DNA of 64,000 bases from a virus (IMGVR_UViG_3300046710_000261:91949-155948), one strand, 5' to 3'. Positions 11,775 through 53,371 are shown, counted from the first letter of the stretch. The notes: a model not told the origin generated them from the letters alone. Numbers and translations: made by a program.

Positions 11775-12599
11775 ATGAAATGGTTGGATTTTATTGCTCC
11801 TGAAATGAATATTGCTTATGAAGTAATGAATAATCTTTATTACTTCAACAAAAGACTTTTTGATGCTGCGAGAAGATGTAATTTTTCTATTTCCTCATTA
11901 GGAGAAATTGGTGATACAAAAAACCATATTTACCTATTGAAACGACCAAAGGTAAATGGTGGAAACGGTCTTATTACATCGGGATTTCATGGAAATGAAA
12001 TTGCTGGCCCTTGGGGCGTCGTGAGGTTTTTAGAAAATACCGATTTGAATATATTTGACAATATAAACGTTTCAATTATTCCCCTAGTAAATCCCATGGG
12101 GTTTAGAATGAATATGAGGCATGGGGGATATGGTGACGATTCTAACAGGGGATATATAAAAACTGATGATATACAACATATTCCTCAATTGTCTAAAGAA
12201 GGAGAGATTTTGAGGTCACACGGGGCTATCTATAAAGACTTGGCCAAGGATGGGTTGATATGTCTCCACGAGAATCCTGGATACGATTTTGACTATTTCA
12301 TATACGGATATGAAAAATCGGCAGAACCAGGAAATTTCACCAATCTATTCAGAGACATAGAAACCAAATATTTCCTTCCTTTTGGATTTGGTGAATCTCC
12401 AAGTAAATGCGATGCCGTGATTGATTCGATTGTTTTCAAAAGATTTGATGGTGGATTTCAGGATTGGCTTTTTAGAGAGGGCATGACAGACAGGGCCGTT
12501 GTTACGGAAACTCCTGGAAATCAACCATTGGAAAAACGATTGAAGTGTAATGTTGAGATGATTGAAGCATTCATAAATTGGATACGAGATAATACATGA
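11775..12599 (+). CDS. M14-family metallocarboxypeptidase (AstE/AspA-like)
   Basis: GFHGNE, VNPMG, DSNR, CLHE, TETP. Confidence 0.85.
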   Translation: MKWLDFIAPEMNIAYEVMNNLYYFNKRLFDAARRCNFSISSLGEIGDTKNHIYLLKRPKVNGGNGLITSGFHGNEIAGPWGVVRFLENTDLNIFDNINVSIIPLVNPMGFRMNMRHGGYGDDSNRGYIKTDDIQHIPQLSKEGEILRSHGAIYKDLAKDGLICLHENPGYDFDYFIYGYEKSAEPGNFTNLFRDIETKYFLPFGFGESPSKCDAVIDSIVFKRFDGGFQDWLFREGMTDRAVVTETPGNQPLEKRLKCNVEMIEAFINWIRDNT

Positions 12600-13225
12600 G
12601 ACTAAATGAATTTTTAAGTAAAGAAGATTTTTCAAAGAAATCAGAAGAAATATGCGATATATTAAGAAAAGAATGCTTTGATTTTATCGTGGAATCCAAA
12701 GGTCAATCTCTTTATAGGGCAACATATCAGCCTGTGAATCATTATAGATTATTTCAATCTCATGTTAAAAGCGGTCGTGAGCCAAGAAATACACCACCAG
12801 AGGTTCATGATTATTTGAATGACTTGTTTATAGAACATCTTGGATGGAAGGAACGAGATGGTGTTTCTACAATGGGGCATGAATCTGGTTATTATGGTTA
12901 TGCGTATTTGTTTTTTCCTGTAGGCGAATATCAGTATGCTTGGGCAGATGATATTTATGATATATATATTAAAATAAATGATATTGCTGATGAGGTTACG
13001 GGCCAGAGATCTATTCCTCATCTCTTCTTTTTGGATAAGTATAAGGAAGAAGCAAAAATAAGATTACAACAATTAGTGAAATCATATAACGATGATAGAC
13101 TTGCAGAAGCAATTCATCAAGATGCGGAAGTAGTTTTTAATTGTAAAGAATATTATCTTGTCAGTCAAGTGTATTTGGAAGATATAAGAAAAGCTATGAA
13201 GGTTAGGAAGAAATATATAAAGTAG
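12596..13225 (+). CDS. ART-like paralog (subfamily A), MRL leader
   Basis: LYRA...R.P...GW..RDGVST...YG..YLFFP...AEVVFNC. Confidence 0.55.
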   Translation: MRLNEFLSKEDFSKKSEEICDILRKECFDFIVESKGQSLYRATYQPVNHYRLFQSHVKSGREPRNTPPEVHDYLNDLFIEHLGWKERDGVSTMGHESGYYGYAYLFFPVGEYQYAWADDIYDIYIKINDIADEVTGQRSIPHLFFLDKYKEEAKIRLQQLVKSYNDDRLAEAIHQDAEVVFNCKEYYLVSQVYLEDIRKAMKVRKKYIK

Positions 13226-13236
13226 AGGGATTATAG

Positions 13237-13815
13237 ATGAGATTGAATGAATTTATATCAGAAAAAATGATGGATTTTCCTCATGTAAGGCAGAGCACAA
13301 ATTACTCTTGTGGTGCAGCCGCTGTTCAATCAGTTATAGCATATTATGAAAACGATATGCCGAGAGAAACCGAAGTGATGAAATGGCTTCATACCGTTCC
13401 CTGTGATGTGATGAATATCGGCTCGGCAATTCAATCCGTTATATCTTTTCTAACAGAGCGTGGATATACTCTTGAACATAAGGAATATTTTACTATAGAA
13501 GAGGTTGTTCAATATATTCAACGGGACATTCCTGTAATTGTCCTGATGCAAGCATGGGCAGAGCAAAGACCAAAAGACTATTCTATGACATATACCGATG
13601 GTCACTATATTGTTGCTATCGGTTATAACTTATTTCAGAAGAGATTATTTTTCGCCGACCCGTCTTTGGAAACAAGGGGATGGCTGGATTTTGATGAATT
13701 GAATGCGAGATGGCATGCAGTTGACGAAACAGGGAAAAAAGTAGAACATTATGGTTTTGCAGTTTCAGGAAAGAAACCAAATTTCAGTAATAAGGTAATT
13801 AAAAAAATAGAATGA
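13237..13815 (+). CDS. C39-like cysteine peptidase, MRL leader
   Basis: RQSTNYSCGAA, GHYIVAIGY, FADPS. Confidence 0.88.
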   Translation: MRLNEFISEKMMDFPHVRQSTNYSCGAAAVQSVIAYYENDMPRETEVMKWLHTVPCDVMNIGSAIQSVISFLTERGYTLEHKEYFTIEEVVQYIQRDIPVIVLMQAWAEQRPKDYSMTYTDGHYIVAIGYNLFQKRLFFADPSLETRGWLDFDELNARWHAVDETGKKVEHYGFAVSGKKPNFSNKVIKKIE

Positions 13816-14615
13816 GACTAAACAATTATTTGGAAGAAGAAAGACGAAGCAGAAGTGTTAGTGTTACGACGAAATGGGTGAAAGATTTCATTTCTCATAA
13901 TGATAATTCTGTTGAATCTTCTTCATTATATAGAGGCATCAAAGGGGCAACAGAACCATATTATTTTACAGACCCATCTAAAGGGGAGAGAGGTTCACGA
14001 GACACCTTTATATTCTATGTGTTAATGATGGATAATTTTCCAGAATGGAAGGAATATCCAAAACGAAGCAAATCAATTATTATGGGAACGAGTGATGATG
14101 TTGCCTATTCTTATGGTACGGCTATATATAGAGTTTTTCCAGTAAATAATGCTAAAATAGCAATCTCCCCGAAATTTGATGTGTGGTCTGCTTTTGTCTT
14201 TTCTCTTGGCTCGGGAATTGAAACTTTTAGCATTGAATTGAATACTATTTTTGGTCTTTTTCGCGAAGAGATACACAAGGAACAAAAAATAACATATGAA
14301 GAATTATTGAAAAAATTTAGTATCGCGGATAGGCCCAGAAATAAAGAAAGAATTAAAACATATTATCAAGAAATGAGTTTAGGCTTAATGCGCAGTAAAA
14401 TATTTCATGATAAATCTGAATATATCAATACACCTAAACTTAAATTAGTGGATGTTTTGAGAGAAAAAATTAGTCCTAAAAATAACAATTTTGAATTGAT
14501 AACTCTGAATAAACATATGATTCTTCCTCCCAGACGGGAAGCGTGGACGGATAGTGAATGTGTTCTGGTGAGCGTAAATTCTTTAAAAAATATTTTAGAT
14601 CCATCATTGCTTTGA
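13812..14615 (+). CDS. ART-like paralog (subfamily B), MRL leader
   Basis: LYRG...YPKRSKSII.GTS...YG..YRVFP...REAWTDS. Confidence 0.55.
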   Translation: MRLNNYLEEERRSRSVSVTTKWVKDFISHNDNSVESSSLYRGIKGATEPYYFTDPSKGERGSRDTFIFYVLMMDNFPEWKEYPKRSKSIIMGTSDDVAYSYGTAIYRVFPVNNAKIAISPKFDVWSAFVFSLGSGIETFSIELNTIFGLFREEIHKEQKITYEELLKKFSIADRPRNKERIKTYYQEMSLGLMRSKIFHDKSEYINTPKLKLVDVLREKISPKNNNFELITLNKHMILPPRREAWTDSECVLVSVNSLKNILDPSLL

Positions 14616-14625: not shown

Positions 14626-15417
14626 ATGAGATTAAATAATTATATATTGGAAGATAAAGCAGATAAGTATACAATGATTTCTGAAAAGAAAGCAATGGAA
14701 ATAGTCAAGGCCAAATGTTCCGATGCCCATAATAGTGATACGAGATTATTTAGGGGATTGAATAGAACCGATCCCGCCTTTATCTATAAGCCATCATTAT
14801 CACCGAGACATTCAAAAATTAGAATAGAATTTTTGATGTTACTTGCCGACAATCTTCCATCATGGAAAGAATATCCAAAAAGGTCATTATCTATTTCTAC
14901 TATAACAGGGAAGATGGGGCCAGGTGAATTTGGTAGTGTTTTATATAGAGTGTATCCTTTTAATGGGGCGAAATTGGCGGTCTGCCCAGCAATAGATTTT
15001 AATCAGGGTTCATTTAAGAAATCTTTGGGTGATATAGGTGAAGCAAGACTATTATATTATCTTCAAGATATATTTGACAAAATTTTTAATTTGAAGGGGA
15101 ACATAGAAAAATGGACAGACTTTGTTAAAGTTTTAAGTCTATGTGATAAGAATAAAGATAAGATTGAGAAGTGGTATAGAACAACACAGCCAGAATTGGT
15201 ACAAAAATATTTTATAGACCATGTAAAATATTTTGGTAGGAATATCAGTTTTTTGGATGCTCTTGATGAAGCACTTGACCCTAAAAAGAATGGATTTCGT
15301 ATTGCTAATATCAAAACACAAATTCCAGAGGGGAAGGAAGTGTGGACAGATTCGGATTGTGTTCTTATTTTTAAAGGAAAAGCAGAACGCCGAGGATTTT
15401 CGGAGTTGATAAAATGA
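14626..15417 (+). CDS. ART-like paralog (subfamily B), MRL leader
   Basis: LFRG...YPKRSLSIST...YRVYP...KEVWTDS. Confidence 0.55.
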   Translation: MRLNNYILEDKADKYTMISEKKAMEIVKAKCSDAHNSDTRLFRGLNRTDPAFIYKPSLSPRHSKIRIEFLMLLADNLPSWKEYPKRSLSISTITGKMGPGEFGSVLYRVYPFNGAKLAVCPAIDFNQGSFKKSLGDIGEARLLYYLQDIFDKIFNLKGNIEKWTDFVKVLSLCDKNKDKIEKWYRTTQPELVQKYFIDHVKYFGRNISFLDALDEALDPKKNGFRIANIKTQIPEGKEVWTDSDCVLIFKGKAERRGFSELIK

Positions 15418-16226
15418 GATTAGAAAATTATCTTGAAGAAAAAATAAAATATGATGATAAAACAAGGTCTTCAGTTTTGGATTTGGCAAAGGGCCGAGAA
15501 TTTATTTATTCATCTTGCTCTAAAGCACTTGATGCTCCTTATGCTATATATAGAGATTCGGCCACAACAGGAGATGTTCTTCTTGTGGAACCATCAAAAT
15601 ATGAAAGATATTCTGCCAATACTTTTAATTATTATACGTTGATGATAGATAATTTTCCAGAATGGCAAAAGTATCCCAAAAGAAGCAAATCAATCATTTG
15701 TTCTACAAACCCAATATATGCCGAAGCCTTTGGTGAAAACTTATATAAAGTGTTTCCTATTGATGGAGCAAGAATTGGAGTATGCCCTAATTCTGATATA
15801 TGGCCAACAAATATTGGTGGTAAAGCCCAATTGAGCGACCTTGTTGAAGCTATTGATGACTTATTGATTATTTTTTATAATAACATTTTACACGAGGCCA
15901 AACCCGAATTGATAGACAGGGATTATAATAAGTTTAAAAAAGCTATGGAACTTATTGATAAGAACTTTGAGAAATTTGCGCATGAGTACAAAAACACAGG
16001 GCAGGAATATTATTCTAAGAAATATTATTGTAAGATTTGGAATGAATTGAAATATTTTTCCAAGAAGGTCTCTTCTATTGATTTTTTGCGAAAGATTTTC
16101 AATCCAGAGACATGTAAATTTGAATTGAAAACATCTGGTGATTCTCTTCCTCTTGATAGAGAAGTCTGGATTGAAGATAAATCTGTTTTAGTCAACAGGG
16201 ATGTCTGGAAAAAAATATTTTATTAA
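15414..16226 (+). CDS. ART-like paralog (subfamily B), MRL leader
   Basis: IYRD...YPKRSKSIICST...YKVFP...REVW. Confidence 0.55.
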   Translation: MRLENYLEEKIKYDDKTRSSVLDLAKGREFIYSSCSKALDAPYAIYRDSATTGDVLLVEPSKYERYSANTFNYYTLMIDNFPEWQKYPKRSKSIICSTNPIYAEAFGENLYKVFPIDGARIGVCPNSDIWPTNIGGKAQLSDLVEAIDDLLIIFYNNILHEAKPELIDRDYNKFKKAMELIDKNFEKFAHEYKNTGQEYYSKKYYCKIWNELKYFSKKVSSIDFLRKIFNPETCKFELKTSGDSLPLDREVWIEDKSVLVNRDVWKKIFY

Positions 16227-16978: not shown

Positions 16979-17530
16979 ATGACTTGTAAAAAATGTGAAA
17001 TTGATAAATTATGGACAGACGAATATTTTTATAGAAGGTCAGACAATGGAAGATTGAGAAAAATATGTAAAGAATGTGTTATTGATAATCAAAGACAATA
17101 TAATTTGAAACATAGAGATGAACAATTAAATTATCTACATTTATATTACGAGAATAATAAAGGAGAAATGATTAAACAAATTATACAATGTGAAAAAAAT
17201 CGTATTCAAAGTGATATACAATTCAAAGTAATTAAAAGATTAAGAAGTCGTATGTATTCAGCATTAAAAGGAAATTGGAAATTTGGTCATACAATTGAAT
17301 TACTTGGATGTTCTATTGATGAATTCAAAAAATATTTTAAAGAGAAATTTCAGCTTGGAATGAATTGGGATAATTATGGTAAATGGCATATTGATCATGT
17401 AAGACCATGTGCTTTATTTGATATGAGCAAAGAAGAAGAACAGAGAAAATGTTTTCATTATACCAATCTTCAACCATTGTGGGCAAAAGATAATATTTGT
17501 AAGGGAGGAAAAATAAAAAATGAAATTTAA
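16979..17530 (+). CDS. HNH homing endonuclease-like protein
   Basis: CxxC pairs; WHIDHVRPC...CFHYTNLQPLWAKDN. Confidence 0.85.
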   Translation: MTCKKCEIDKLWTDEYFYRRSDNGRLRKICKECVIDNQRQYNLKHRDEQLNYLHLYYENNKGEMIKQIIQCEKNRIQSDIQFKVIKRLRSRMYSALKGNWKFGHTIELLGCSIDEFKKYFKEKFQLGMNWDNYGKWHIDHVRPCALFDMSKEEEQRKCFHYTNLQPLWAKDNICKGGKIKNEI

Positions 17531-17882
17531 AGATTTTTATGAAAGACCCATTATGAAGAAAACGGAAGATATAGAAGAACGATTTGTTCTTTCTGAATCC
17601 ACCCATATAGAAAATACTGATATGGAGCACTTCAAAAAGGTATTGAAAAATCCTACACATGGAAAATATGTATTAAGGAGTTACAGGAATAATTATACTG
17701 ATGAAGAAAGAGAAGTAGACATTCTTGCTCTGGAAGGAAGAACAAGAATCGTGTTGACTTATAATGCTGATTTCTTGGAATTTACACAGGAAATGGTTGA
17801 TTTATGTGACGATTTAAATTATACCACCAAGTATGATAAAGAAAGACAAATAAACACACAAACTCTTACGATATATAAGTAA
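17520..17882 (+). CDS. Hypothetical protein, leader variant MKFKDFYE
   Basis: GGAGG RBS; coupled within array. Confidence 0.6.
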   Translation: MKFKDFYERPIMKKTEDIEERFVLSESTHIENTDMEHFKKVLKNPTHGKYVLRSYRNNYTDEEREVDILALEGRTRIVLTYNADFLEFTQEMVDLCDDLNYTTKYDKERQINTQTLTIYK

Positions 17883-17883
17883 A

Positions 17884-18501
17884 ATGAAAGCCAAAAGATA
17901 TATAGCAGAAGCAATAGCAGGTGATAGAGAAATACTTGATTTTGTCAAGAAACAATGCAGTAAATATCTTGCGGAATCAAAAGGTAATACTCTTTGGAGA
18001 GCGATTCCGCGTAGAATCAATAAGTATGAAGTTGTTCAATCGCATATTAGCAATAGGGCACCAATGAATGTTCCTTTGGAATTTCATCATTATCTCAATT
18101 CTATTTTTGAAGAAAAGTTTGGCTGGCCTGTTAGAAACGGAACATTTTCATATAGTGACAAAGAGAAAACATATTTTTATGGTCAGCCTTATATGTTTTT
18201 TCCGATTGGGGATTATAAGTTTGTATGGTCTCCTAATGTATCTGATCTTTTCGGTGCGTTATATTCTTTTATACCAAAAGAATATTTCGAACATTCAAGT
18301 TCTATGGGTGTATGGTGGAAAAAAAAGCCAGAAGAAGCAAAGAAAGTGGTGAGAACATTGTTAATAACATATACTGATAAAAATTTGGTTGAAGCAATAA
18401 AACACAGAGTTCATTTGGTAAGAGACGAAGGTTGCGAAATATCATTCAAATGTGGTAATTATGTTTTAGTGGACGAAGAATATCATTATTTATTTGCGTA
18501 A
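17884..18501 (+). CDS. ART-like paralog (subfamily A), leader MKAKRYIAE
   Basis: LWRA...KFGWPVRNGTFS...YG.PYMFFP.G.YKFVWSP...CEISFKC. Confidence 0.55.
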   Translation: MKAKRYIAEAIAGDREILDFVKKQCSKYLAESKGNTLWRAIPRRINKYEVVQSHISNRAPMNVPLEFHHYLNSIFEEKFGWPVRNGTFSYSDKEKTYFYGQPYMFFPIGDYKFVWSPNVSDLFGALYSFIPKEYFEHSSSMGVWWKKKPEEAKKVVRTLLITYTDKNLVEAIKHRVHLVRDEGCEISFKCGNYVLVDEEYHYLFA

Positions 18502-18505: not shown

Positions 18506-19528
18506 ATGAGATTATATAAGAATATAAATGAAGCTAAAAATTATAATAACTGGATGTTTCCTTCTCACGAAACAATGGTGGCGGATTATGAAGAATATAA
18601 GAAAAAGGAACAGACCAAGTGGAAATCTAGGGTTGATCGCATTGGTTCACGATTTCCGATATTCAAAGATTTTGAACATTTTCAACAAGCGTTGAAAAAT
18701 GCCAAAGTAATAATATTGACAAAAAATATTGATGATAGAATAATGAATAGAAGCCATTCATTTAGCATAGAAAATTTAAAAGGTTTGGTTTCTTCATATA
18801 TTCGCCCGCGCGATGTTGATAGAATAGTTAGCGGTTTCGAGGACAATGATAAAATTCCTTATCCTATTGTATTGAAAGGCAGCAAAGGAATGTGGATAAT
18901 GGCAGGTAATACAAGACTTGATACATCATTCATTATGGAAATAACACCGAAAGTATTGATGGTTGATGTTTCTGATAAGGTAATGGAAGAACAAATACCT
19001 ATAACTGCTGATAGAATTATTTATATACTTAAAAAGGATTGTAAGCCCTTTATAAAAGAACTTGGTGGTCGTGGATTGTATTATAGATTTAGGCGGTTTC
19101 CTATGGTAGATAATATTCTGAAAATGGATGTAAGAAAAGATCGACAACCAAAAGATATGTCACTTGATATGCAAAGAATATTTGACCATATGTTTTTTAA
19201 AAAATTTGGATGGAAACCACGATCAGAGGGTGTATTTGCTTTGCCTCAATCTGAAATACTGGATGATGCGACATATAATTATGGCAAACAATTTATATTT
19301 TTTCCTATTGGAATATATAAGTATATTTGGTCTTCAAGAATAATTGATTTATATGGTTCTATTCCTGCTTTACGTGGCAAGGATAAAAACGAAGAGGCCA
19401 AAAGATTGGTTAGCAGTTATATAGACAATAGTCTTCCTATGGATACACCACATGAAGTTACATTTTTGTGTGAATATTATTACTTGGTAAACATGAAATA
19501 TGATAAAGCTATCAGGAATGCTATATGA
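18506..19528 (+). CDS. ParB/Srx-like N-terminal domain fused to ART-like subfamily A domain
   Basis: PYPIVL...IMAGNTRL, then LYYR...KFGWKPRSEGVF...HEVTFLC. Confidence 0.55.
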   Translation: MRLYKNINEAKNYNNWMFPSHETMVADYEEYKKKEQTKWKSRVDRIGSRFPIFKDFEHFQQALKNAKVIILTKNIDDRIMNRSHSFSIENLKGLVSSYIRPRDVDRIVSGFEDNDKIPYPIVLKGSKGMWIMAGNTRLDTSFIMEITPKVLMVDVSDKVMEEQIPITADRIIYILKKDCKPFIKELGGRGLYYRFRRFPMVDNILKMDVRKDRQPKDMSLDMQRIFDHMFFKKFGWKPRSEGVFALPQSEILDDATYNYGKQFIFFPIGIYKYIWSSRIIDLYGSIPALRGKDKNEEAKRLVSSYIDNSLPMDTPHEVTFLCEYYYLVNMKYDKAIRNAI

Positions 19529-20430
19529 GATTGAATACTATTTTGAAAGAAGAAGAAGATAGAAATACCAGGTGGGAAGAACTGAAAGTCTTCATTCAGA
19601 AGCATTGTGTCAAATTCATGATAGAATGCGCCGAAAAGAATATTATCTTGTGGAGAGGTTCTAATAAATTTCCTATTGATCCCTATAACATATGGGATGT
19701 ATATCCATCTCGTATTTCTAGTGGAAGAGCACCGATGAGTACAAGTAAATTTCTTCATGATCTGGCAAATAAAACATTCATTGAGAAATTTGGTTGGCCT
19801 GTTCGAGACGGGATTTTTACCACCAAAGATTTTAGTGTAGCAGATAGTTATGGGAGAGCATTTATTTTTATTCCTGTGGATAGTTATCAGTATGCGTGGT
19901 CTCCTAAAATTTCAGATTTTTATATGTATGTAACATCACAAACTACTAAATTAACATATTTTGATATTGGCGGTGGTGATCCTGATGCTATGATGTATCG
20001 TTTATGGATAGAAAAATATGGGCCAAAAACAATTCATGATAATGGTGGTGAATGGTTTGATGTTGTTAAAAATGAAATTATCAAAATGGATAGTTATGAA
20101 AAGAAAAGTAAAGTCTTTTTATCTAACCATAAAGTAGGAGATGAAATAGTTCTTGGTGTCTATCATAAACGAGCAGAAAGAATAAATGTTTTTTGGAAGC
20201 CAACAGTTGATTTTAACCAATTTAAGAAAGAAGAATGGCTTCAACTGGAAGGAGAAATGCGAAGTATTGTTAATACATATACAGGTAAAGTTTTAGTTGC
20301 GGCGAACGAAAAACATGAAATTCTTTTCAATTGTGATAAATATATTATGATATGGGTGCCGAGAGTTGAGTCAACTGAAAAGGAAAAGATACTTTCTGAA
20401 TATTTTAAAATATTGAGGGAATACAAATGA
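19525..20430 (+). CDS. ART-like paralog (subfamily A) with insertion, MRL leader
   Basis: LWRG...KFGWPVRDGIFTT...SYG..FIFIP...HEILFNC. Confidence 0.55.
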   Translation: MRLNTILKEEEDRNTRWEELKVFIQKHCVKFMIECAEKNIILWRGSNKFPIDPYNIWDVYPSRISSGRAPMSTSKFLHDLANKTFIEKFGWPVRDGIFTTKDFSVADSYGRAFIFIPVDSYQYAWSPKISDFYMYVTSQTTKLTYFDIGGGDPDAMMYRLWIEKYGPKTIHDNGGEWFDVVKNEIIKMDSYEKKSKVFLSNHKVGDEIVLGVYHKRAERINVFWKPTVDFNQFKKEEWLQLEGEMRSIVNTYTGKVLVAANEKHEILFNCDKYIMIWVPRVESTEKEKILSEYFKILREYK

Positions 20431-20750
20431 TAGATATACTTGAGAAAATAAAATTTATTTTGGAACAGAACGCAGTAACTTCATATGGCAGACAGGCTCA
20501 ACAGCAGAAAACCGCCACATCAAGTGCATATAAATCATCTGTCACGGCTCAGAGGTCTGCTGCCGCTTCAAGAGTAAGAACACAAAAGGCTCGACAAGCA
20601 ACTCCAAAGAAAAGCACTCAAGGCCCATCTAGTAATAAAGAATGGTGGAATAAAATCAAAAGTCAGAGACAACGACATTCAGACGTTATAAATAAAAGAA
20701 AATCGGCCAATACAAGTGGCTATCAATCGAGATTAGCAAGGACAAAATAA
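20427..20750 (+). CDS. Small basic low-complexity protein
   Basis: MIDILEKIKFILEQ leader, then R/K/S/Q-rich. Confidence 0.55.
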   Translation: MIDILEKIKFILEQNAVTSYGRQAQQQKTATSSAYKSSVTAQRSAAASRVRTQKARQATPKKSTQGPSSNKEWWNKIKSQRQRHSDVINKRKSANTSGYQSRLARTK

Positions 20751-20959
20751 TGGAAAAAGTAAACATCAATGTGGGAACGTTGCCTAATGTAGTTTGTGAT
20801 TGCGGTAATGAATTTTTCGAAAACCTATTTATCGTGAAAAAACTTTCTGCTTTACAAAGCCCAACAGGCAAAGAAGAAGCTATGCCAATTCCTCTTATGA
20901 TTTGTAGTAAATGTGGAAAGAGTTTGGAAGAAATTCTAACAAAACCTACATTACAATGA
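20750..20959 (+). CDS. Small zinc-ribbon protein
   Basis: CDCGN...SPTGKE...CSKCG. Confidence 0.7.
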   Translation: MEKVNINVGTLPNVVCDCGNEFFENLFIVKKLSALQSPTGKEEAMPIPLMICSKCGKSLEEILTKPTLQ

Positions 20960-43250: not shown

Positions 43251-43397
43251 AAAAGGTGAATATGAAAAAGAGAATTACATTCAGGGAAAAGATGGTTAAT
43301 TTGTGTAATCCAAAAGATAGAATGTTTGTTGGTGAATTGAAACCGTTTTACTGCTTGAAATTCAAGACTATATGTTCAAGTAAAAATTGTAAGTTGG

Positions 43398-44139: not shown

Positions 44140-44217
44140 GCGGGTGTAGTGTTTAACGGAACAGCACGAAAGGCTTCCACCCTTTTAGTGAGGGTTCGAG
44201 TCCCTCCACCCGCTCCA
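44140..44217 (+). tRNA. tRNA-Gly(TCC)
   Basis: Loop CTTCCAC, CCA. Confidence 0.9.
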
Positions 44218-44405
44218 AGGTATTATGGAAGCAATTGATAATCGACATTTATTTAAGAAGAGAGATAAATTAATTCTCTGCCATATATGTAGGAAAGGAA
44301 TTATAAGAAGGTATCCATCGGTTCTTTGCAGTTTGTGCAACCCAAATGAAAGTCTCGATTGTGAAGTATTAGAAAGCAATATTGATATATACAATAAGAG
44401 AAAAA

Positions 44406-44675
44406 ATGACAAAAGTAGTTCATTGTAAAAAAGAAGCATATGATGTATATATCGGAAGGCCCAGTAAATGGGGCAATCCATTTGCTATAGGCAAAGACGG
44501 CAACAGGGAGAAGGTATTACAGAAATATCAAGTATGGATAATGAAGAATGAAAAACTTCTTGCTGATTTACATGAATTGAAAGATAAAACTTTGGGGTGC
44601 TGGTGTAAACCCAAAGGATGCCATGGTGACATATTAGCATTATTGGCGGATTATATAGGAAAGGAAATTGTATGA
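44406..44675 (+). CDS. DUF4326 family protein
   Basis: VYIGRPSKWGNPF...LGCWCKPKGCHGDIL. Confidence 0.88.
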   Translation: MTKVVHCKKEAYDVYIGRPSKWGNPFAIGKDGNREKVLQKYQVWIMKNEKLLADLHELKDKTLGCWCKPKGCHGDILALLADYIGKEIV

Positions 44676-44961
44676 AGTATTTTGTGCTTCACGATGAAAA
44701 CGAGGAAATAACATATCGTCTTCCTCTTGTTAGTTGTTCGATGGATTTTCAGGATTTCCTAGATATAGTTTCTGAATCTGATATGACTTGGTTGGAAGAA
44801 ACATATGGTGTTCATGATGCTTCTTGGGATGAATCCAAAAATGAATTTCTTGGTTTCACAAGTTCTGAAGTTGAAGATTGGGATTTTGTGAAAAACTATT
44901 GGGAAAAATGGTTGCGAGAAACTGGGTTTGTCATAGGTAAGAAAGGATGGAAAAAGATTAA

Positions 44962-45038
44962 GGCGGCATAGCAAAGATGGTAATGCGTCTGTCTGCAAAA
45001 CAGAAAATGCGGGGGTTCGAGTCTCTCTGCCGCCTCCA
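44962..45038 (+). tRNA. tRNA-Cys(GCA)
   Basis: Loop CTGCAAA, U73. Confidence 0.88.
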
Positions 45039-45044
45039 AAATTC

Positions 45045-45132
45045 GGAAGGGTGATCGAGTGGTTTATGATGAAAGTTTGCTAAACTTTTGGGTGTAAAAG
45101 CCCCGCAGGTTCGAATCCTGTCCCTTCCTCCA
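45045..45132 (+). tRNA. tRNA-Ser(GCT)
   Basis: Loop TTGCTAA, long variable arm. Confidence 0.88.
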
Positions 45133-45356
45133 AAAGATTATGATGGATAAAATAAAAATAGATATATTATCGACCAGAGAAAACAATACATACATTGCTA
45201 GATTTTCTGATTATCCAGATCATGTAGTTGCCTTTACGTATGATGCCAAAAAATTACTCGATAATCATCAATACATTATAGAGCATAATGGTTCTCATAA
45301 ATCAATATACTCTGATGCGTGTTGGATAGATGAAGTGAAAGTTATTGACCAAATTC

Positions 45357-45446
45357 GGAGAGATGGCCGAGTGGTTTAAGGTGCCTGTCTGGAAAGCAGG
45401 TGGAGTCACCATGCTCCCATGGGTTCAAATCCCATTCTCTCCGCCA
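45357..45446 (+). tRNA. tRNA-Ser(GGA)
   Basis: Loop CTGGAAA, long variable arm. Confidence 0.9.
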
Positions 45447-45513
45447 TAACTTATTGATATATATGTAAAACTTTTTTCTTGACATATATTGAAAACTCTG
45501 ATATAATTATAAT

Positions 45514-45978
45514 ATGAACTATAAAATCTCAAAAGACCATGATTATGTTTCCCAAAGATTTATTACAATCATAAAGGAAATTCGTTCTATTCTTTTTGTT
45601 GGTTTGAAAGAAGCAAAAGAAATGGCAGAAAGCATAAGAGACAATGGTTATTTTGTTTCTGAATTGACCGATATTCAAAAAAATGATTTAATTTATGTTG
45701 GGTTCAAAATTATAGATGAAGAGGATAATTCATTTTATTTGCCTTCAGCCAAAAGCAGAATTTCAAAAAAAATTGAATTGAGAATTGCTGCCGTAAAGGA
45801 TTTACGAGAAGTTTTTAATAATGGTCTTTATGAAGCAAAAATAATGATGGAAAATATTGATGAGTATGGTTATATTGACCATGAAGTGACCGATGAACAA
45901 TATGATAAACTGATAGCGCGAGGGTTTACAGTAATTCGTCCTGCTTTTTTTCCAAAGGATTTGTTCAAAATAGAATAA
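45514..45978 (+). CDS. Tandem ribosomal L7/L12 C-terminal-domain-like protein
   Basis: IIKEIRSILFVGLKEAKEMAE and IAAVKDLREVFNNGLYEAKIMME. Confidence 0.65.
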   Translation: MNYKISKDHDYVSQRFITIIKEIRSILFVGLKEAKEMAESIRDNGYFVSELTDIQKNDLIYVGFKIIDEEDNSFYLPSAKSRISKKIELRIAAVKDLREVFNNGLYEAKIMMENIDEYGYIDHEVTDEQYDKLIARGFTVIRPAFFPKDLFKIE

Positions 45979-45979
45979 T

Positions 45980-46055
45980 GCGGGATTAGCTCAATTGGGA
46001 GAGCGTTGTCCTGACACGGCAAAGGTAGTTGGATCGAAACCAACATTCCGCACCA
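45980..46055 (+). tRNA. tRNA-Val(GAC)
   Basis: Loop CTGACAC; T-loop ATCGAAA. Confidence 0.85.
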
Positions 46056-46257
46056 AAAGAAAGGAAAGTAAAATGAATTATTTTTGTTCAAAATGTAGCG
46101 GGGATTTGGGAAAACCAAAAACAGCAACGGGTGTGGATAATGGTGTTTATTTTCTTGACCCCTGCCAGTATTGTCTGAAAGAAGCAGAGGCCAAGGGTTT
46201 ACGAAAAGGCCGAAAGTTAGGAAAGACAGAACGAAATATTTCTTGGAGTAAAAAGAG

Positions 46258-46779
46258 TTGGTAAACAAAAATTTAATACATTTTGGTAATACATTCGCTC
46301 AAGATAAATTTAGAAAATTAAGAGAAGAGTGCCAAAATAAGGGAAAACAAAAAGCAAAGGAATTGAATTGGTTACATATTTCTGGATGTATGTTGTTTTG
46401 GGGTGAGGGTTCTAAAAAGAAAAATTCCGTCATACTTACAAATTCAGATGTTAATATGTTGAAATTTTTTCTGAAGTTTTTGATGGAATGTTATAATGTT
46501 CGGATAGAAGAAATAAAATTAGAAATAAATGCTTATGATAATAACGGAATGTCAATATCTGATATTGAAGCATATTGGTGTAATGCTTTGTGTTTGCCGA
46601 AAAGTTGTTTAAGAAAATCAATTATAAATAAGTATTCTAAATTTTCTTCGAAAAAGAAAAAAGGAAAATTGCTTTATGGCACTTGTAAAATAATGGTTCA
46701 TCGAACAGACATAGTTCAAAATATTTATGGTGCCGTTCAAGAATATGGTGATTTTAGAAACGAAAAATGGTTGTATTAA
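46258..46779 (+). CDS. LAGLIDADG-like protein
   Basis: GCMLFWGEGSK...V.LTNSD..ML.FF..FL. Confidence 0.55.
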   Translation: MVNKNLIHFGNTFAQDKFRKLREECQNKGKQKAKELNWLHISGCMLFWGEGSKKKNSVILTNSDVNMLKFFLKFLMECYNVRIEEIKLEINAYDNNGMSISDIEAYWCNALCLPKSCLRKSIINKYSKFSSKKKKGKLLYGTCKIMVHRTDIVQNIYGAVQEYGDFRNEKWLY

Positions 46780-46785
46780 AATAAT

Positions 46786-46862
46786 GCGGGATTAGTTCAC
46801 TTGGGAAGAACATTCGGCCTACACCCGAAAGGTAGGTGGTTCAAATCCACCATCCCGTACCA
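46786..46862 (+). tRNA. tRNA-Val(TAC), C33
   Basis: Loop CCTACAC, CCA. Confidence 0.85.
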
Positions 46863-47358
46863 AAAATTTTATGATAGCGAATATTCCACAATTGACTAAT
46901 CCCAATCCCATAATTGTAAAAACAATGGGGATTATATATCTTATTATCGGTATATGTTTTTTTATTTTTACATTGAAGAAATTATTTCAATATATCAAAT
47001 ATCGCAAAGAGAGTGAATATATAAATTCAATGTATGAAGCAAGAAAAGCAATAACAGAATTGAAAAATATAAATGCTTATCTGAATAGGAAGTAGAATGA
47101 AATTCGAACATGGTGATACAGTAATTATAGAAGATATAGAGTTCTCCGATGGTTTTTATGATAAACGAAAAGAATATATTGGGAGAGAGTTTCATTTAAC
47201 ATCTTCTACACGATACCAAAAGATATTTTCTTCCAATAAAGATTATGTAACATGTAGTGGAAATCTGGTTTCGAATAATGAATATTGTTTTTTTCTTTCT
47301 GTGAAATTAGGCTCGATCATAAAGTTTAAATTACCAAAAGATTTGTTTGAAATATAAT

Positions 47359-47435
47359 GAGGTCGTAACAAATATTGGCTTGTAACAGGCTCTTACCCTG
47401 CGCACATGGGGGTTCGATTCCCCCCGACCTCACCA
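47359..47435 (+). tRNA. tRNA-Lys(CTT)
   Basis: Loop CTCTTAC, CCA; weak D arm. Confidence 0.78.
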
Positions 47436-48288: not shown

Positions 48289-48334
48289 TCGTTCCTTTTT
48301 ATAAATAAGTATAGATTATATTGGGGGAAAGACT

Positions 48335-49006
48335 ATGCGATATGAAAATTTTTTGGTAGAAGTGGACAAAAGAGAAAAAGAAATGGCAGTGAAGTATAAA
48401 AATGTTCCTGTAGAACAAATTCCTCTTGAAGACCTTTGGGTTTTTATGTCTAAAGGAAATTTGAAATTATCCAAGAAGATAAAAATATTCAATCTTCCCG
48501 CTATACAGAGTTGCCCAAATTCTTCCCAATGTGCTAAATTCTGCTATGCTAGAAAAGCAGAAAGACAATATCCTGCTGTCAGGGCAGCACGAGGCCGAAA
48601 TTTTAGACTTGCTAAAGAAGCCCCCGAACTTTTGAAAAAACAAATATTATCGAAGTTAGAATCAGGAGATATTGTCAGAATTCATGAATCAGGTGATATG
48701 TTCTCTCAAGCATATCTTGATATGTGGTTTGAAATTGCAAAAGAAAGACCTGATGTAAGATTCTATACATATACTAAAACAGAACATATATGGGATTTTG
48801 GAAAGATTAAATCTCTTCCTAATTTCAATGTCGTAAGTTCTTTTGTTGGTGGTAAAGTTAACTTTGGCCCAGAACAAGAAATAAACATTCGTGCAGGAGA
48901 AACAGGTGCCTTTGTTTGTCCATGCAAACCAGGAAATAAGGTGGTTTGTGGGGAAACATGCACCGCTTGCCAAACAAGGTCTGATGTTCTTTTTGTTCAG
49001 CATTAA
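48335..49006 (+). CDS. Gp88-like protein with MRY leader
   Basis: FNLPA..SCP...C..FCYA, RIHESGD, FY.YTK; TATAAATA at 48300. Confidence 0.8.
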   Translation: MRYENFLVEVDKREKEMAVKYKNVPVEQIPLEDLWVFMSKGNLKLSKKIKIFNLPAIQSCPNSSQCAKFCYARKAERQYPAVRAARGRNFRLAKEAPELLKKQILSKLESGDIVRIHESGDMFSQAYLDMWFEIAKERPDVRFYTYTKTEHIWDFGKIKSLPNFNVVSSFVGGKVNFGPEQEINIRAGETGAFVCPCKPGNKVVCGETCTACQTRSDVLFVQH

Positions 49007-49104
49007 TATTTTATGTTTACAATTACTCTCCACTATGCTATAATTATATTGTAGTATAATGATTTTTCTATTTATGAGGTTCAAAAAATATCTTTGGAGA
49101 GATA

Positions 49105-49650
49105 ATGGTAGGTAAACCAAAAGCATTTGTTTTCATTGAAATTGTTTTATTGTTATTCAGTCTTACCTTTTTATTCTATTCAGGCCATAATTTCGGTAAA
49201 GTCTTACCAGTACCCGTCTATATACTCAATCACGACCCTGTTGTATCTGAAGCAAAAATGGCCCTTTATATACTCAATGCTCCTATAAATAAAATCAATG
49301 AACTTACTTCTTCTGTAGCCAATGTTTCAAAAATTACCAAATTGAATCCCACACTTATTGTCGCTTTGATGTATACCGAATCCGAGTTCAAATATAATGC
49401 TGTATCCAATAAAGGATATAAGGGATTGATGCAAACACCATGGGCAACAAAAGAATATGCCGATGTTGATATTCTTTATGGATGCAGAATTTTGAACGAA
49501 AAATTGCTGATTGCCGATGGCGATATGTTATTTGCTCTTGCTTTATATAAAGGTGGTAATAATCCTGAAGCAAAGAAATATGCAAGACAGACAATGAACC
49601 TTTATATGAAAATAAAAGACAAGCAAAAGAAGTTGGATTTGGAAGTATAA
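49105..49650 (+). CDS. Lytic transglycosylase (SLT domain), N-terminal TM
   Basis: ALMYTESEF...AVSNKGYKGLMQ...ALALY.GG. Confidence 0.85.
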   Translation: MVGKPKAFVFIEIVLLLFSLTFLFYSGHNFGKVLPVPVYILNHDPVVSEAKMALYILNAPINKINELTSSVANVSKITKLNPTLIVALMYTESEFKYNAVSNKGYKGLMQTPWATKEYADVDILYGCRILNEKLLIADGDMLFALALYKGGNNPEAKKYARQTMNLYMKIKDKQKKLDLEV

Positions 49651-50449
49651 AAAGGAGAATAAGATGGACAATCTTTGGGATACTGAATTGAAATATGACA
49701 AGCAATTTGAAGATGGAATAAATCAATTCATAAAATTTATGAAGAAACAAGATAAGATTGTTACTGCTCGTGATATGATACCCAAAATGAATTATGAATA
49801 TATCACGGCATATAAAAAAATTGACAGGATTGAATGTCTTTTGTGGGAAGGTGTTCTTATCAACAGAGAAGTATACGATGCCCAATTGAATATCGGATAT
49901 GAAAAATTTGGAACGGGAAGAAATCAGGGGCAAATATATATTCATAAAAAAGGAACTGATTTGCGCACAAGAGAAAATTGGGTGGTAGAAATCAAGCCTT
50001 ATTGGAAAGATACCATTAAAGAAATGTTGAAAGGAGAATGATAATGCCAGAAGATATCCCGCTTTTCAATAAGTTTGAAGAAAAATATAATTGGCCACCT
50101 TCACAGAGTGAAGATAGAAAGGAGAACAAAATGGAAGAGAATACGGATAAAATATTGGCCCCAAAAGTAGAAAAGGAAAAAAATCAAATGTTGTCAAAAA
50201 TCGGCAATGCTGTCAATAAGTTTGCTTTGATTACTCTGATATTTTTCTTATTCGGTATCAGTGTGGGCATTTGGGGTGCGAAGCAATATTTCTATATGAA
50301 GATGGGCGAGATTGTTCAAGTTAAAGGATTTGTCCATGATGGCAATGTTTTCGATGTTCGTTTGAGAGTTACAGACATTCAGACGCCGCCATCCCAGGTT
50401 GTCCCTCCAACGTCAACCAAAAAATAAAGAAATATATAGGCTGGTTTTA

Positions 50450-50482
50450 GACCCATAGGTGCGAAAGTGCTTATGGGTTTTT
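50450..50482. terminator. Terminator between convergent units
   Basis: ACCCATAGG...CTTATGGGT plus T-run. Confidence 0.6.
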
Positions 50483-50926
50483 TATTTTTTCTCTTACTTT
50501 TTCCAGAATGTTTTTCATACCAGAATTGAACATTTTCAAATTGTTCCAATTGATATAATGGAATTGATCAACTTCTGGCGCGAGTTCATCGGGTCTTATA
50601 TGAAACATTGAAGTGCATTTCATTGAAGATATTGAAGGAAGATTTTCAAGTTTCAGGACAAAAACGTCAACGTCTTTATAGTTTGTATAATAATGTTTTC
50701 CCATTGGGGTTAGTTGTGATTTATATCTCGATATGTCAATGTTTGTTTCTTCTTTGAACTCCCTTACAATAGTTTCAACAGGGTTTTCTCCTGGATTGCC
50801 CATTCCTTTTGGCATATCATAGAGAAATCCATTTGTAGGTCTAACGGCGAGAAATACTTCTCCATCTGTAAGAATAAGACCTACACTGAGTTTTTTTTCT
50901 TCTGTTATATATTTATTGAGTCTCAT
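50471..50926 (-). CDS. Nudix hydrolase, MRL leader
   Basis: PKG...GE....T.VREFKEETNI (Nudix box). Confidence 0.9.
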   Translation of the reverse strand: MRLNKYITEEKKLSVGLILTDGEVFLAVRPTNGFLYDMPKGMGNPGENPVETIVREFKEETNIDISRYKSQLTPMGKHYYTNYKDVDVFVLKLENLPSISSMKCTSMFHIRPDELAPEVDQFHYINWNNLKMFNSGMKNILEKVREKIKNP

Positions 50927-51228
50927 TCTGATCCCATATTACTATTCTGGTATTTGATTTTTTGAGCAGTAGGAAAATCCTTGAACTCTCCATTCTGATA
51001 AAATCCTTTGAATGCTATGGGAGAATCGCCTATCGCAATATATGGTATAAGACTTGGGCGTTTATATGCGGTCAGAGTTGTCATACCAAAGACTGTGTGG
51101 GCAATCCATGCATACTCATTTCCCACGCTCATTTCTTTCATTCTTTGGTGAAGCTGATCTACATTCTTTATGTTATAAACAACAACTTTCCTTTCTTCTT
51201 TTTCTGTAAGATATTCTTGTAGTCTCAT
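50923..51228 (-). CDS. Hypothetical protein, MRL leader
   Basis: MRLQEYLTEKE; coupled to neighbours. Confidence 0.65.
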   Translation of the reverse strand: MRLQEYLTEKEERKVVVYNIKNVDQLHQRMKEMSVGNEYAWIAHTVFGMTTLTAYKRPSLIPYIAIGDSPIAFKGFYQNGEFKDFPTAQKIKYQNSNMGSE

Positions 51229-52607
51229 TATTTTTCCGATAGAGCATATTTCAATGATGGGTTGACTATTAATCCAGCCCGTCTAATAAATTGGCGATTC
51301 ATCAATACAGGAGTTGAAAAATCTTCTCGATCTGATAGACAGAATCTAACGTTTTTGTATGTTTCCCCGTTGAAAATTACATTCAACTTTATGACGGGTC
51401 TTTCTTCTCTCTTATGTTCTGTCGCTCCTGCTTCTACTTCTTTCATGGAGTCTAATTCATCGGTATATTTCTTTCCATACATTTCCCATCTTATATTATC
51501 GCCATTTATTTTCCATTTGTTGGCATGAATGACAGAGTAAGAACTATTGCCCGTATCCATTTTGGCATCAAATTCTTTATCTGTTTTTTCTATTTTTATT
51601 TTTTCAACGAAACCACATTCTGTCTTTTTTATATCAGCCCAATTGTTCTTATCGGTTATGAACTTTACTACTGTTCCAACTATATTTTTATGGGTGGCTT
51701 TTTCTATTCCTTCTGTCCCTGGTGAAGAGTTGACTTCGATAACGCGATAATCCTCTTTTCCTGCATCCATTACATCTACACCGACCCATATTCCCCCTAT
51801 TGCCTTCGCTGCATTGATAGCAAATTCTCTCAATTTGTCATTTACTTTCATCTCTTCAATTTTGCCACCAAGAGAATAATTTGATCTGAAATCATTTTTT
51901 ATTTTGAATCTTTTCATTGCTCCTATGACTTCACCACCCAGAACATGGATTCTCATATCAAAATCTGCTTCAATGTATTCCTGCATCAATATCTGTACTT
52001 CTTCATCTACTTTCCACATTGCCTGAAGAGTAGAATTCATGCCAATCCACGAATCCGCAAAAAACACTCCAATACCCTTTGATCCTGTTATGGTTTTTAA
52101 GATACATGGGAATTTTCCACCAATTCGTTTAAATGCGCCCCCAAGCCCATCTTTATTCACTACCGTTGCTGTCTTGGGGCATTTTATCTCATTGTCTTCC
52201 ATGGCGAGAATTGTTCGATATTTATCGGAGCATATTTCTATTGCTTCTCTTCCATTTACACAGAATATACCAGCATTTTCCATTCTGGAAAGAAGGTCAA
52301 GGCCAGTTGATAGTGTATCAAAAGTTCCTCGAACAACAACTGCTGTATTGTTTTTGTGTATTTTAAATCCTTGTTTGTCATCGGAATTATGGACGGTCAT
52401 ATCATCTTTATTTCGATTGATGAATGCATTCTCGGCGTATAATACATAATGACTTATTTTTTTCTTTTCACAATACTCTTTGATTTTCTTTGATGTGTCA
52501 AAGAGTTTATCCCCACCAGAATCTTCTTTTTTTTCATCATTCTTTGTTGTGAGAATTACGACTTTAATTTTTTCATCTGCTTCGGTTATATAATATTTAA
52601 GTCTCAT
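51228..52607 (-). CDS. RimK-family ATP-grasp ligase fused to retropepsin-like protease, MRL leader
   Basis: CSDK, GSKGIGV, QEYI, DMRI.V, FRSN.SLGG, GVD, EVNSSPG; C-terminal AKMDTGN...ERPV...DR. Confidence 0.92.
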   Translation of the reverse strand: MRLKYYITEADEKIKVVILTTKNDEKKEDSGGDKLFDTSKKIKEYCEKKKISHYVLYAENAFINRNKDDMTVHNSDDKQGFKIHKNNTAVVVRGTFDTLSTGLDLLSRMENAGIFCVNGREAIEICSDKYRTILAMEDNEIKCPKTATVVNKDGLGGAFKRIGGKFPCILKTITGSKGIGVFFADSWIGMNSTLQAMWKVDEEVQILMQEYIEADFDMRIHVLGGEVIGAMKRFKIKNDFRSNYSLGGKIEEMKVNDKLREFAINAAKAIGGIWVGVDVMDAGKEDYRVIEVNSSPGTEGIEKATHKNIVGTVVKFITDKNNWADIKKTECGFVEKIKIEKTDKEFDAKMDTGNSSYSVIHANKWKINGDNIRWEMYGKKYTDELDSMKEVEAGATEHKREERPVIKLNVIFNGETYKNVRFCLSDREDFSTPVLMNRQFIRRAGLIVNPSLKYALSEK

Positions 52608-53135
52608 TTATTTCTCAATATAGTCATCAAGTATTTTGACTAAATCTTCAGCATAGATATCATGTTCTTTGTGTTTTGAAACCCATTTTAAATCTTTTCC
52701 CACACCAAAATCTATATCATATAAATCCTTTCCGTTTAGATGAATAACAACCTTTCCTTTGAATTTTGCTCCATTCACTCTAAACTGAAGACTTGATGGA
52801 TTGTTTGTTGATACAAAATCTTGTGCTCCCCATGCTCCCAATGCCCACTTATCTAAAGAATGAATTTGTGTAAGAATGGTTTTAGCAACTTGATGCCCCT
52901 GCTCCCAAAGTAGTTTCTCTTCCTTGGTCATGGTCATTTCTTCCTTTCTCCTACTCAATAATTTTTTTTTCTTCTTCTTCTTATTATAAATGTAGTAAGG
53001 ATAAAATTTGGCTATCTTGCTTGTTGTTGTGGCACCACTTCCAATTTCTCCACCTTTTGCTCCTCCAGCTATTCCACCAGAAGTCATTCCACCACCACCC
53101 GCCATTTGCTCTTGCATGTATTTTTCAAGCCTCAT
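52608..53135 (-). CDS. Hypothetical protein, MRL leader, Gly-rich and poly-Lys N-half
   Basis: MRLEKYMQEQ; possible internal start near MTMTKEE. Confidence 0.55.
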   Translation of the reverse strand: MRLEKYMQEQMAGGGGMTSGGIAGGAKGGEIGSGATTTSKIAKFYPYYIYNKKKKKKKLLSRRKEEMTMTKEEKLLWEQGHQVAKTILTQIHSLDKWALGAWGAQDFVSTNNPSSLQFRVNGAKFKGKVVIHLNGKDLYDIDFGVGKDLKWVSKHKEHDIYAEDLVKILDDYIEK

Positions 53136-53371
53136 TAGTATTGCCTCATGCTATCAGTTGTTTCTCCTGATGTATCTGCTATTGGTCGAAATGTTAATGG
53201 CTTTTTAACTTCTTTCGGTTCTTTCTTTTTCTTCTTTTTCTTTCTGTCGATTTGATCCTTTGGCTTATATGCAACTGCCCCCATACCATAATTCGCAAAG
53301 CCACCAGATGTTTGATTGCTGGGGTTCGAAGATACACCGTCTTGTTCTGATAAATATTTTTTTAGTCTCAT
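53135..53371 (-). CDS. Small basic protein, MRL leader
   Basis: MRLKKYLSEQ; poly-Lys tract. Confidence 0.6.
   Translation of the reverse strand: MRLKKYLSEQDGVSSNPSNQTSGGFANYGMGAVAYKPKDQIDRKKKKKKKEPKEVKKPLTFRPIADTSGETTDSMRQY

Follow-up and report, generated by a model that had tools for sequence, protein, structure and literature searches.

The window analyzed here is the final 64 kb (64,000 nucleotides) of G000, a 155,948-bp linear virus contig from IMG/VR that CheckV estimates to be 70% complete; coordinates refer to the window unless G000 or another contig is named. G000 belongs to an uncultured T4-like giant phage. It carries a T4-type replication set (clamp loader, UvsW-like helicase, gp2-like DNA end protector, gp32, endolysin, RNase H and ribonucleotide reductase), its gp43 polymerase is about 28% identical to the cyanophage enzymes, and a search for near-identical DNA among cultured phages gave no match for the window. 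The G+C content of the window is about 35%, and 34 tRNA genes lie at 32-47 kb. Several groups of genes in the window encode proteins that begin with the same nine-residue peptide, hereafter the tag, whose consensus on G000 is M-[RK]-L-x-x-[YF]-[IL]-x-E. The tagged genes and the promoter-like motifs in front of them are listed below.

11169-11176, plus strand: intergenic TATAAATA, the T4 late-promoter consensus, upstream of the first tagged array
11775-12599, plus strand: 274-residue protein with the variant tag MKWLDFIAPE and a weak AstE/AspA-like match; the related contig G001 has MRFLDFIAPS and MRFLDFISD
12596-13225, plus strand: family A paralogue, 10-residue variant MRLNEFLSKE
13237-13815, plus strand: Peptidase_C39_2 cysteine peptidase, MRLNEFISE, Pfam domain from residue 13
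13812-14615, 14626-15417 and 15414-16226, plus strand: three family B paralogues with a weak ADP-ribosyltransferase (ART)-like fold, homologues of virion proteins gp053-059 of phage Atu_ph07
16241-16966, plus strand: tagged P-loop kinase (Zeta_toxin/AAA_33) with MRLGGFIDE; its homologue in Atu_ph07 is the segment 247-455 of the virion protein gp053
17520-17882, plus strand: 120-residue protein, MKFKDFYE, the weakest member and off consensus
17884-18501, 18506-19528, 19525-20430 and 20956-21558, plus strand: four family A paralogues, homologues of Atu_ph07 virion proteins gp054/057/060/061
48300-48307, plus strand: TATAAATA, with the tagged GP88 gene 27 nt downstream
48335-49006, plus strand: GP88-domain protein (Pfam), MRYENFLVE
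50471-50926, minus strand: tagged NUDIX protein (Pfam), one of five consecutive tagged genes (50471-53371)
50923-51228, minus strand: 101-residue tagged protein of the same row
51228-52607, minus strand: tagged RimK+Zn_protease protein (Pfam) of the same row
52608-53135, minus strand: 175-residue tagged protein of the same row
53135-53371, minus strand: 78-residue tagged protein of the same row
54539-54546, minus strand: TATAAATA, in front of the operon to which the 50.5-53.4 kb tagged cluster belongs; a divergent plus-strand copy lies at 54553
G000 60581-62737, 62739-62957, 64136-64774 and 64778-65110, minus strand: tagged genes outside the window
G000 66730-67359 (tag ending in D), 67361-67585 and 71009-71248, minus strand: further tagged genes outside the window

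A first-pass annotation of the window had quoted 17 of these N-termini, and all of them were found where it had placed them, each starting on an ATG and most lying behind a Shine-Dalgarno-like GAGG/GGAG. They read MRLNEFLSKE, MRLNEFISE, MRLNNYLEE, MRLNNYILE, MRLENYLEE, MRLGGFIDE, MKFKDFYE, MKAKRYIAE, MRLYKNINE, MRLNTILKE and MRLEQYITE at 12.6-21.6 kb, MRYENFLVE at 48335, and MRLNKYITE, MRLQEYLTE, MRLKYYITE, MRLEKYMQE and MRLKKYLSE at 50.5-53.4 kb; MRLNEFLSKE, which has one additional residue, and the weak MKFKDFYE are off register. The annotated size of the set, about 17, was too small for the contig, since the variant at 11775 and seven genes upstream of the window bring the number to about 24. 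In the open reading frame (ORF) at 20956-21558 the tag begins at the second ATG, which is the likely start because the homologue on G001, a 189-kb relative whose polymerase is 56% identical to that of G000, begins with the tag. The tag measures nine residues (8-10 in variants); among the 22 ORFs of G000 that the pattern picked out, 20 have [ILM]-x-E at its end and two have D as its last residue.

The position of the pattern is not explained by chance. The 297 called genes comprise 44,533 residues, in which the strict pattern was seen about 10 times at internal positions and 17 times immediately following Met1, where about 0.1 occurrences were expected from the internal frequency and 0.09 from residue composition. 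Information content drops to background directly past residue 9. The Pfam domains of the tagged proteins begin at residues 12-13 (C39_2, NUDIX) or later (27-127) and none overlaps the tag; in the structure that AF2 predicts for one family B protein (pLDDT 80.5), residues 1-16 lie outside the fold at pLDDT 43, with a helix at residues 3-8. Leu3 is encoded by five codons and Arg2 by four, the third base of the Leu3 codon is free, and upstream of the ATG conservation is limited to the ribosome-binding G. With synonymous codons varying where the residue is fixed, and no upstream conservation beyond that G, we conclude that selection acts on the peptide and not on the DNA. A scan of the whole contig found no clearly tagged gene among the early and replication genes (polymerase, helicase, clamp, clamp loader, gp32, RNase H and ribonucleotide reductase).

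The bodies behind the tag were described in the first-pass annotation as otherwise diverse. This holds for five unrelated Pfam domain types, and it does not hold for 8 of the 17 proteins, which are paralogues in two distantly related families, A (12596, 17884, 18506, 19525 and 20956) and B (13812, 14626 and 15414); in all, the roughly 24 tagged G000 proteins represent about 17 body families. Pfam assigned C39_2 (twice), Zeta_toxin/AAA_33, GP88, NUDIX and RimK+Zn_protease to tagged bodies on G000, so the annotated C39 peptidase, P-loop kinase, Gp88, Nudix and RimK identities are borne out at 13237, 16241, 48335, 50471 and 51228. The annotated ART-like domains showed a weak fold resemblance and no match by sequence. 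Pfam and PDB profiles gave no ART hit for family A or B, and Foldseek returned nothing significant for the family B model; the VIA-align list for that model consisted mostly of ART folds, all at low Z (Arr 6.1, diphtheria toxin 4.9, cholix 4.3, PARPs 3-4). Family B has invariant R47, R65, 'ST' and E250, which might correspond to the ART catalytic pattern R / S-T / E. Since the VIA-align hits are of low Z and Foldseek found nothing significant, the ART-like identity of the two families is plausible, not established. For the GP88 protein, homologues in actinobacteriophages lack the tag and align from residue 35 at the earliest, which places the addition of the tag in a T4-like context. A role of the tag as a double-glycine leader for the C39 peptidases was also considered and was rejected: there is no Gly-Gly at the tag end, and a Gly run follows a few residues later in only two proteins.

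Each tagged cluster lies downstream of a copy of TATAAATA, at 11169 (plus), 48300 (plus) and 54546 (minus), as the annotation had noted. The same motif precedes the endolysin gene, the gp2 block and a highly expressed gene for a 518-residue protein, and 12 of its 29 sites are intergenic, in DNA that is only 14% intergenic. These positions suggest late expression of the tagged genes.

The T4 capsid-targeting sequence (CTS) of internal proteins is reportedly removed by the prohead protease gp21, an observation said to go back to Mullaney and Black in 1996. The first-pass annotation had likened the tag to this 10-residue, MKTYQEFIAE-type signal, and the comparison is supported. In the T4 record ipII and ipIII both start with MKTYQEFIAE, the leader described for them (PMC8442874). 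Mutagenesis of the T4 CTS assigned targeting mainly to residues 4 and 7 and processing to residues 8 and 10, and Asp10 stops cutting without affecting targeting or packaging (PMC9026906). When the two peptides are aligned on the Glu, T4 residues 4, 7, 8 and 10 correspond to the conserved tag positions L3, Y/F6, L/I7 and E9, T4 Y4 being matched by L/F at tag position 3 and T4 F7 by Y/F at position 6. By the same token, tags that end in Asp (G000 66730-67359, and MRFLDFISD in G001) would be packaged and left uncut.

In further respects the tag resembles the T4 system, which covers IPI/IPII/IPIII, its internal proteins, together with the short propeptides of Alt and of gp24 (PMC3012670, PMC9026906): both are N-terminal peptides of 9-10 residues with an [LI]-x-E end like the capsid cut, both have a hydrophobic or an aromatic side chain at each targeting position, both precede unrelated bodies in a T4-type phage, and the ART-like cargo recalls the packaged ART Alt. 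Unlike the T4 CTS, the tag follows MR[LF]xxY[LI]xE rather than MKTYQEFIAE, is found on about 24 genes per genome compared with about five in T4, precedes mostly mid-sized enzymes that are not especially basic, and is known here from genes alone. According to PMC9026906, the polymorphic loci for internal proteins that Repoila et al. (1994) described in T-even phages likewise place variable cargo behind a conserved CTS, and the idea that a CTS permits packaged anti-defence proteins to be swapped applies to both; those loci concern a few small basic proteins in close T4 relatives, whereas the tag occurs in very distant T4-like lineages (DNA polymerase about 28% identical to that of cultured phages) and on 87 or more families of cargo. 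In giant phages of the phiKZ type (SPN3US, phiKZ; PMC5694885) head-internal proteins are also cut after Glu by a gp21-related protease, but the propeptides there have at least 100 residues, the motif is A/S/G-x-E and replication is not T4-like.

We found no head gene (gp20-24) on G000 or G001 with the Pfam profiles of gp21 and gp23. The protease of this phage is therefore predicted from relatives, the head genes lying off G000. Peptidase_S77 (gp21) and Gp23 were both present in all five large tag-bearing contigs first tested (G003, G004, G005, G006 and G007), and among five further tag-bearing fragments (13-61% complete) the protease was found in one, G010. Overall, a gp21-type protease is encoded by each large tag-bearing contig tested whose completeness is 85% or more, and by four fragments of lower completeness. 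The contig G005 is about as close to G000 as G001 is (polymerase 54%, helicase 57% and RimK 48% identity), and its gene order continues the last genes of G000 (tagged small genes, TnsA-like, gp2-like) into the missing head part: portal (Pfam Portal_T4), a tagged 831-residue protein, small KYLxE-type proteins, gp21, the gp22 scaffold and gp23. The 831-residue protein (G005 38217-40712, plus strand), directly after the portal, is Lys-rich and starts MKFRNFVKE, and the small proteins that follow start ...RYLME, ...MYLKE and ...KYLAE. Related loci carrying the gp2-like gene likewise stop near the same point as G000; an exact-protein look-up to extend the G000 end returned only a shorter Logan contig, and a locus search with RimK as the query gave no match.

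The end of the tag was then compared with the capsid cleavage site over about six lineages (cuts are marked by a slash). In the T4 record, gp23 reads GSFLTE/AEI at the known cut, gp24 starts MAKINELLRE (LLRE/S) and gp21 starts MNEPQLLIE. The predicted sites in the capsid proteins of the relatives are EYKYLTE/AGN (G005), HKYLTE/TGN (G007) and HNYLME/QTA (G006), lying 29-40 residues before a conserved MVRR, while the T4 cut lies 37 residues before it. The cultured T4-like phage Melnitz has AFLSE/AAP in its capsid protein and a gene cluster whose products start MQGFKTFLSE (leader MQGFKTFLSE/A), ...SKYITE and MKKFSEIIE. Since the relatives and Melnitz share the motif between tag end and capsid protein, the tag end appears to follow each phage's own predicted capsid cut.

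Virion data are available for a cultured phage with homologous proteins. A tblastn search with a family B protein led to the 490-kb Agrobacterium phage Atu_ph07, which encodes T4-like gp20, gp21 and gp23 (PMC6102473 Table S3). Its gp053-gp061 are homologues of the kinase and of both paralogue families of the window (E values between 1e-8 and 1e-32; eight window proteins matched), and each starts with M[RK]WxQL[TN]E; gp062 (MRWHQLIE), gp063 (MRLFQLLE) and gp047 (MRYKDLKLNE) start similarly. Electrospray ionization tandem mass spectrometry of Atu_ph07 virions detected all of gp053-gp061, with 3-31 unique peptides (PMC6102473 Table S5), and the listed molecular weights agree with the locus tags (gp53, 87 kDa, 778 residues). 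All 12 tag-like proteins between gp045 and gp080 were in the virions (2-31 unique peptides), where 131 of 714 proteins were detected overall (PMC6102473). The virion-protein cluster at CDS (coding sequences) 31-76 of Atu_ph07 (Attai et al. 2018, PMC6102473) thus resembles the arrays on G000 in having homologous paralogue arrays with a short shared N-terminus whose products are detected in virions, and differs in that its tag has 8 residues with Trp at position 3. We found no mention in PMC6102473 of the shared N-terminus or of a link to a CTS. The proteome of RsoM2USA covers only 10 gel bands and was not informative.

The tag extends well beyond G000. On G001 it is carried by about nine proteins, orthologues of the window cargo among them. 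A degenerate DNA pattern for the tag matched more than 117 IMG/VR contigs, and among the 80 loci listed (650 kb), 70 had at least one ORF starting with the tag and 36 had two to eight. Together with G000, G001, G003 and G005, the listed loci hold at least 175 unique tagged ORFs in at least 87 unrelated body clusters, on contigs of 23-45% G+C. A profile search with family B against 5.8 billion proteins gave 88 homologues, nearly all starting with the tag or a close variant, followed by the conserved 'GRS' of the body; 28 match the strict nine-residue pattern, and most of the others are register or single-residue variants.

Collectively, these results make it likely that the tag is this lineage's version of the T4 CTS, which loads proteins into the head, is cleaved by a gp21-type protease and leaves the cargo in the head, probably for delivery at infection. 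The first-pass annotation had proposed loading into the capsid, and the support is indirect: the match to the functional T4 positions, the match to the capsid site, the protease in tag-bearing relatives and the Atu_ph07 virion homologues. For this phage we infer docking, cleavage, packaging and injection, as follows. The nine residues M-[RK]-[LF]-x-x-[YF]-[LI]-x-E may form a short amphipathic turn with Leu3, Tyr6 and Leu7 on one face, by which late-made proteins would dock on the scaffolding core of the assembling prohead. After closure of the shell, a gp21-type prohead protease would cut past the Glu at [YF]-[LI]-x-E, as at the predicted capsid site, and the mature proteins would remain beside the DNA inside the head, most likely to pass into the host when the phage infects it. 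The putative cargo would comprise the eight ART-like paralogues, two C39-type cysteine peptidases, the zeta-toxin-like kinase, Nudix, RimK-protease, GP88 and several proteins without an assigned function.

Several observations weigh against loading into the head. T4 internal proteins are basic, and the mature tagged bodies have a median isoelectric point of 8.0 compared with 7.9 for all genes; some of the cargo looks metabolic (RimK here, NadR-like proteins on other contigs), which is unusual for packaged proteins. Neither G000, at 70% completeness, nor G001 has a copy of gp20-24, and the capsid proteins of G003 and G004 lack an aromatic-L-x-E site, having MNE and ISE instead. The Atu_ph07 virions were only purified with polyethylene glycol, and the protein list includes likely contaminants such as ribonucleotide reductase and a RecA-like protein (PMC6102473); moreover, detections within the Atu_ph07 array are not independent, because its members are paralogues. 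As to timing, TATAAATA is not over-represented overall (29 found, 37 expected) and most tagged genes lie in long co-oriented blocks, and for these reasons late expression is only suggested.

The tag could instead be a propeptide that the protease removes and that has no part in targeting, for instance one that keeps dangerous enzymes inactive until late, with the proteins acting in the producing cell. A plausible gp21 site at the tag end and potentially toxic cargo (the zeta-toxin-like kinase, the ART-like proteins and the cysteine peptidases) would fit such a role, but gp21-type proteases are active inside proheads, so that cutting implies packaging (T4 literature, PMC5694885), and a nine-residue peptide lying outside the fold would hardly inhibit a set of unrelated enzymes. 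The conserved positions also reach beyond the cut site to L3 and Y6, which match the T4 targeting residues, and homologues are present in Atu_ph07 virions. We consider this explanation improbable. We give even less credence to the idea that the tag is a handle for a nearby phage enzyme, such as a peptide-modifying enzyme or the cassette for ubiquitin-like conjugation at 6.3-11.1 kb, rather than a capsid address. The first tagged array does directly follow a Ubl/E2/E1/JAB cassette in G000, G001 and G003; however, tagged genes occur at three other places on G000 away from the cassette, and the 80 loci listed have no constant non-tagged neighbour, an E1 homologue being found in two of them and the commonest neighbours being the gp41 helicase (nine) and the gp2-like head protein (seven).

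The shared start might also be a remnant of common descent from one expanded family, or an element that acts as nucleic acid, for example by enhancing translation or as a cassette for recombination. Eight window members are indeed paralogous, and both T4 CTS copies are identical in DNA, yet the tag is carried by unrelated Pfam bodies (C39, Zeta_toxin, NUDIX, RimK and GP88) and by the 87 or more unrelated clusters, it holds across the whole range of G+C contents, and the actinophage GP88 homologues are without it. Pure paralogy is ruled out by the unrelated domains that share the tag, and an element at the nucleotide level by the free variation of synonymous codons, with nothing conserved upstream. 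Taken together, we hold this to be the least probable of the alternatives, and retain head loading through a CTS-like tag as the preferred explanation.

A broader proposition, for which we see roughly even chances, is that a large part of the environmental T4 superfamily uses a short, readable address code which marks dozens of enzymes per genome for head loading and delivery with the DNA, the code apparently matching each phage's own capsid cut (F-L-T-E and F-I-A-E for T4, F-L-S-E for Melnitz and Y-L-T-E for the present phage). While the principle of a CTS with variable cargo is established for T4 and the T-even phages, this consensus is new, as are the count of genes that carry it, the enzymatic nature of the cargo and the extent of its spread, and in the literature on CTSs in cyanophages, metagenomic or environmental T4-like phages and Atu_ph07 we found no description of such a consensus or scale. 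If the proposition is true, the injected proteome, a first-strike effector arsenal, could be predicted from sequence and would be far larger than the few internal proteins of T4, with ART-like proteins, peptidases, kinases, Nudix proteins and enzymes of NAD and tRNA metabolism among its members. Only for a minority of phages have the proteins that accompany the DNA been identified, and a conserved loading tag that can be read from sequence would turn this question into a genome scan. Proteins delivered in this way are prime candidates for counter-defence and host takeover because they are active before any phage gene is expressed; the tag would single out enzyme families by the hundred, so far uncharacterised, as candidates for delivered effectors, and would offer a portable means of packaging foreign proteins in T4-like phages of hosts other than E. 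coli. The link to the Atu_ph07 proteome provides a cultured system for a direct test of the prediction.

Besides the nine-residue tag, small proteins carry a second N-terminal tag of 11-14 residues, M-x-[ID]-x-K-I-[ID]-x-[YF]-L-x-E. The genes concerned, and the gp2-like gene that follows two of them in the window, are as follows.

20427-20750, plus strand: small protein with the second tag type (MIDILEKIKFILE)
55494-55685 and 55686-55871, plus strand: a pair of small second-tag proteins (MIDRIVDKYLGE and MDKIIFKYLTE)
57076-57672, plus strand: gp2-like DNA end protector, head-associated, at the start of a structural module running off G000 and a recurrent neighbour of tagged arrays elsewhere
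G000 63866-64075, 70066-70413 and 72130-72330, minus strand: second-tag genes outside the window
G005 40755-41009, 41202-41552, 45102-45350 and 55370-55759: second-tag genes in the relative

Because in G005 they are placed between portal, protease and capsid genes, the second-tag proteins may be prohead-core proteins of the gp67/gp68 kind. The slot of gp67/gp68 between portal and protease is occupied in G005 by the tagged 831-residue protein, which has a Lys/Glu/Gly-rich low-complexity stretch. A similar long stretch follows the tag in the 718-residue protein at G000 60581-62737 (minus strand), in which an L-I-L-E site lying 30 residues before the C-terminus recalls the C-terminal processing of Alt.

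Neither the 718-residue protein nor the highly expressed late protein of 518 residues had a match in a PHROGs search. The latter (33419-34975, plus strand) has a very high codon-usage score, lies 41 nt behind TATAAATA and shares the N-terminus M-x-Y-T-x-x-N-L-A-D-D-I-I-H with a 288-residue protein (G000 71263-72129, minus strand). PHROG and Pfam gave no assignment for this pair; the two may be proteins of the fibre type that share an attachment end.

A CCA-adding enzyme (PolyA_pol + HD; G000 65288-66730, minus strand) lies between tagged genes and starts MDFRRFYLFE, a doubtful 10-residue variant of the tag. On other contigs, L053:6623-8968 and 12 similar ORFs are tagged, encode 400-860 residues (MRFKDYIKE...) and contain a NadR-like cytidylyltransferase region that also occurs in cyanophages and Melnitz, which raises NAD-salvage enzymes as possible head cargo.

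Among the head proteases of the relatives, the gp21 ORFs of G003 (104577-106289; L180:4577-6289) and G004 (L163/L165) encode 570-576 residues instead of the usual 210 or so, and their Pfam match is split in two; the junction HPPC/VLGDTEILTNNGW suggests an intein inside the protease. The gp21 match at G010 32998-33423 contains two in-frame TGA codons, pointing to possible recoding or a broken gene. Three large genes adjoin the capsid/neck genes in both G005 (48597-53546) and G001 (180093-186607); with one PHROG match to a 'sporulation protein', we read the trio as PrkA/YeaH/SpoVR-like. Finally, the tRNA genes of the window span 32470-47435 with small ORFs between them, and one (36586-36657) has an odd anticodon loop.

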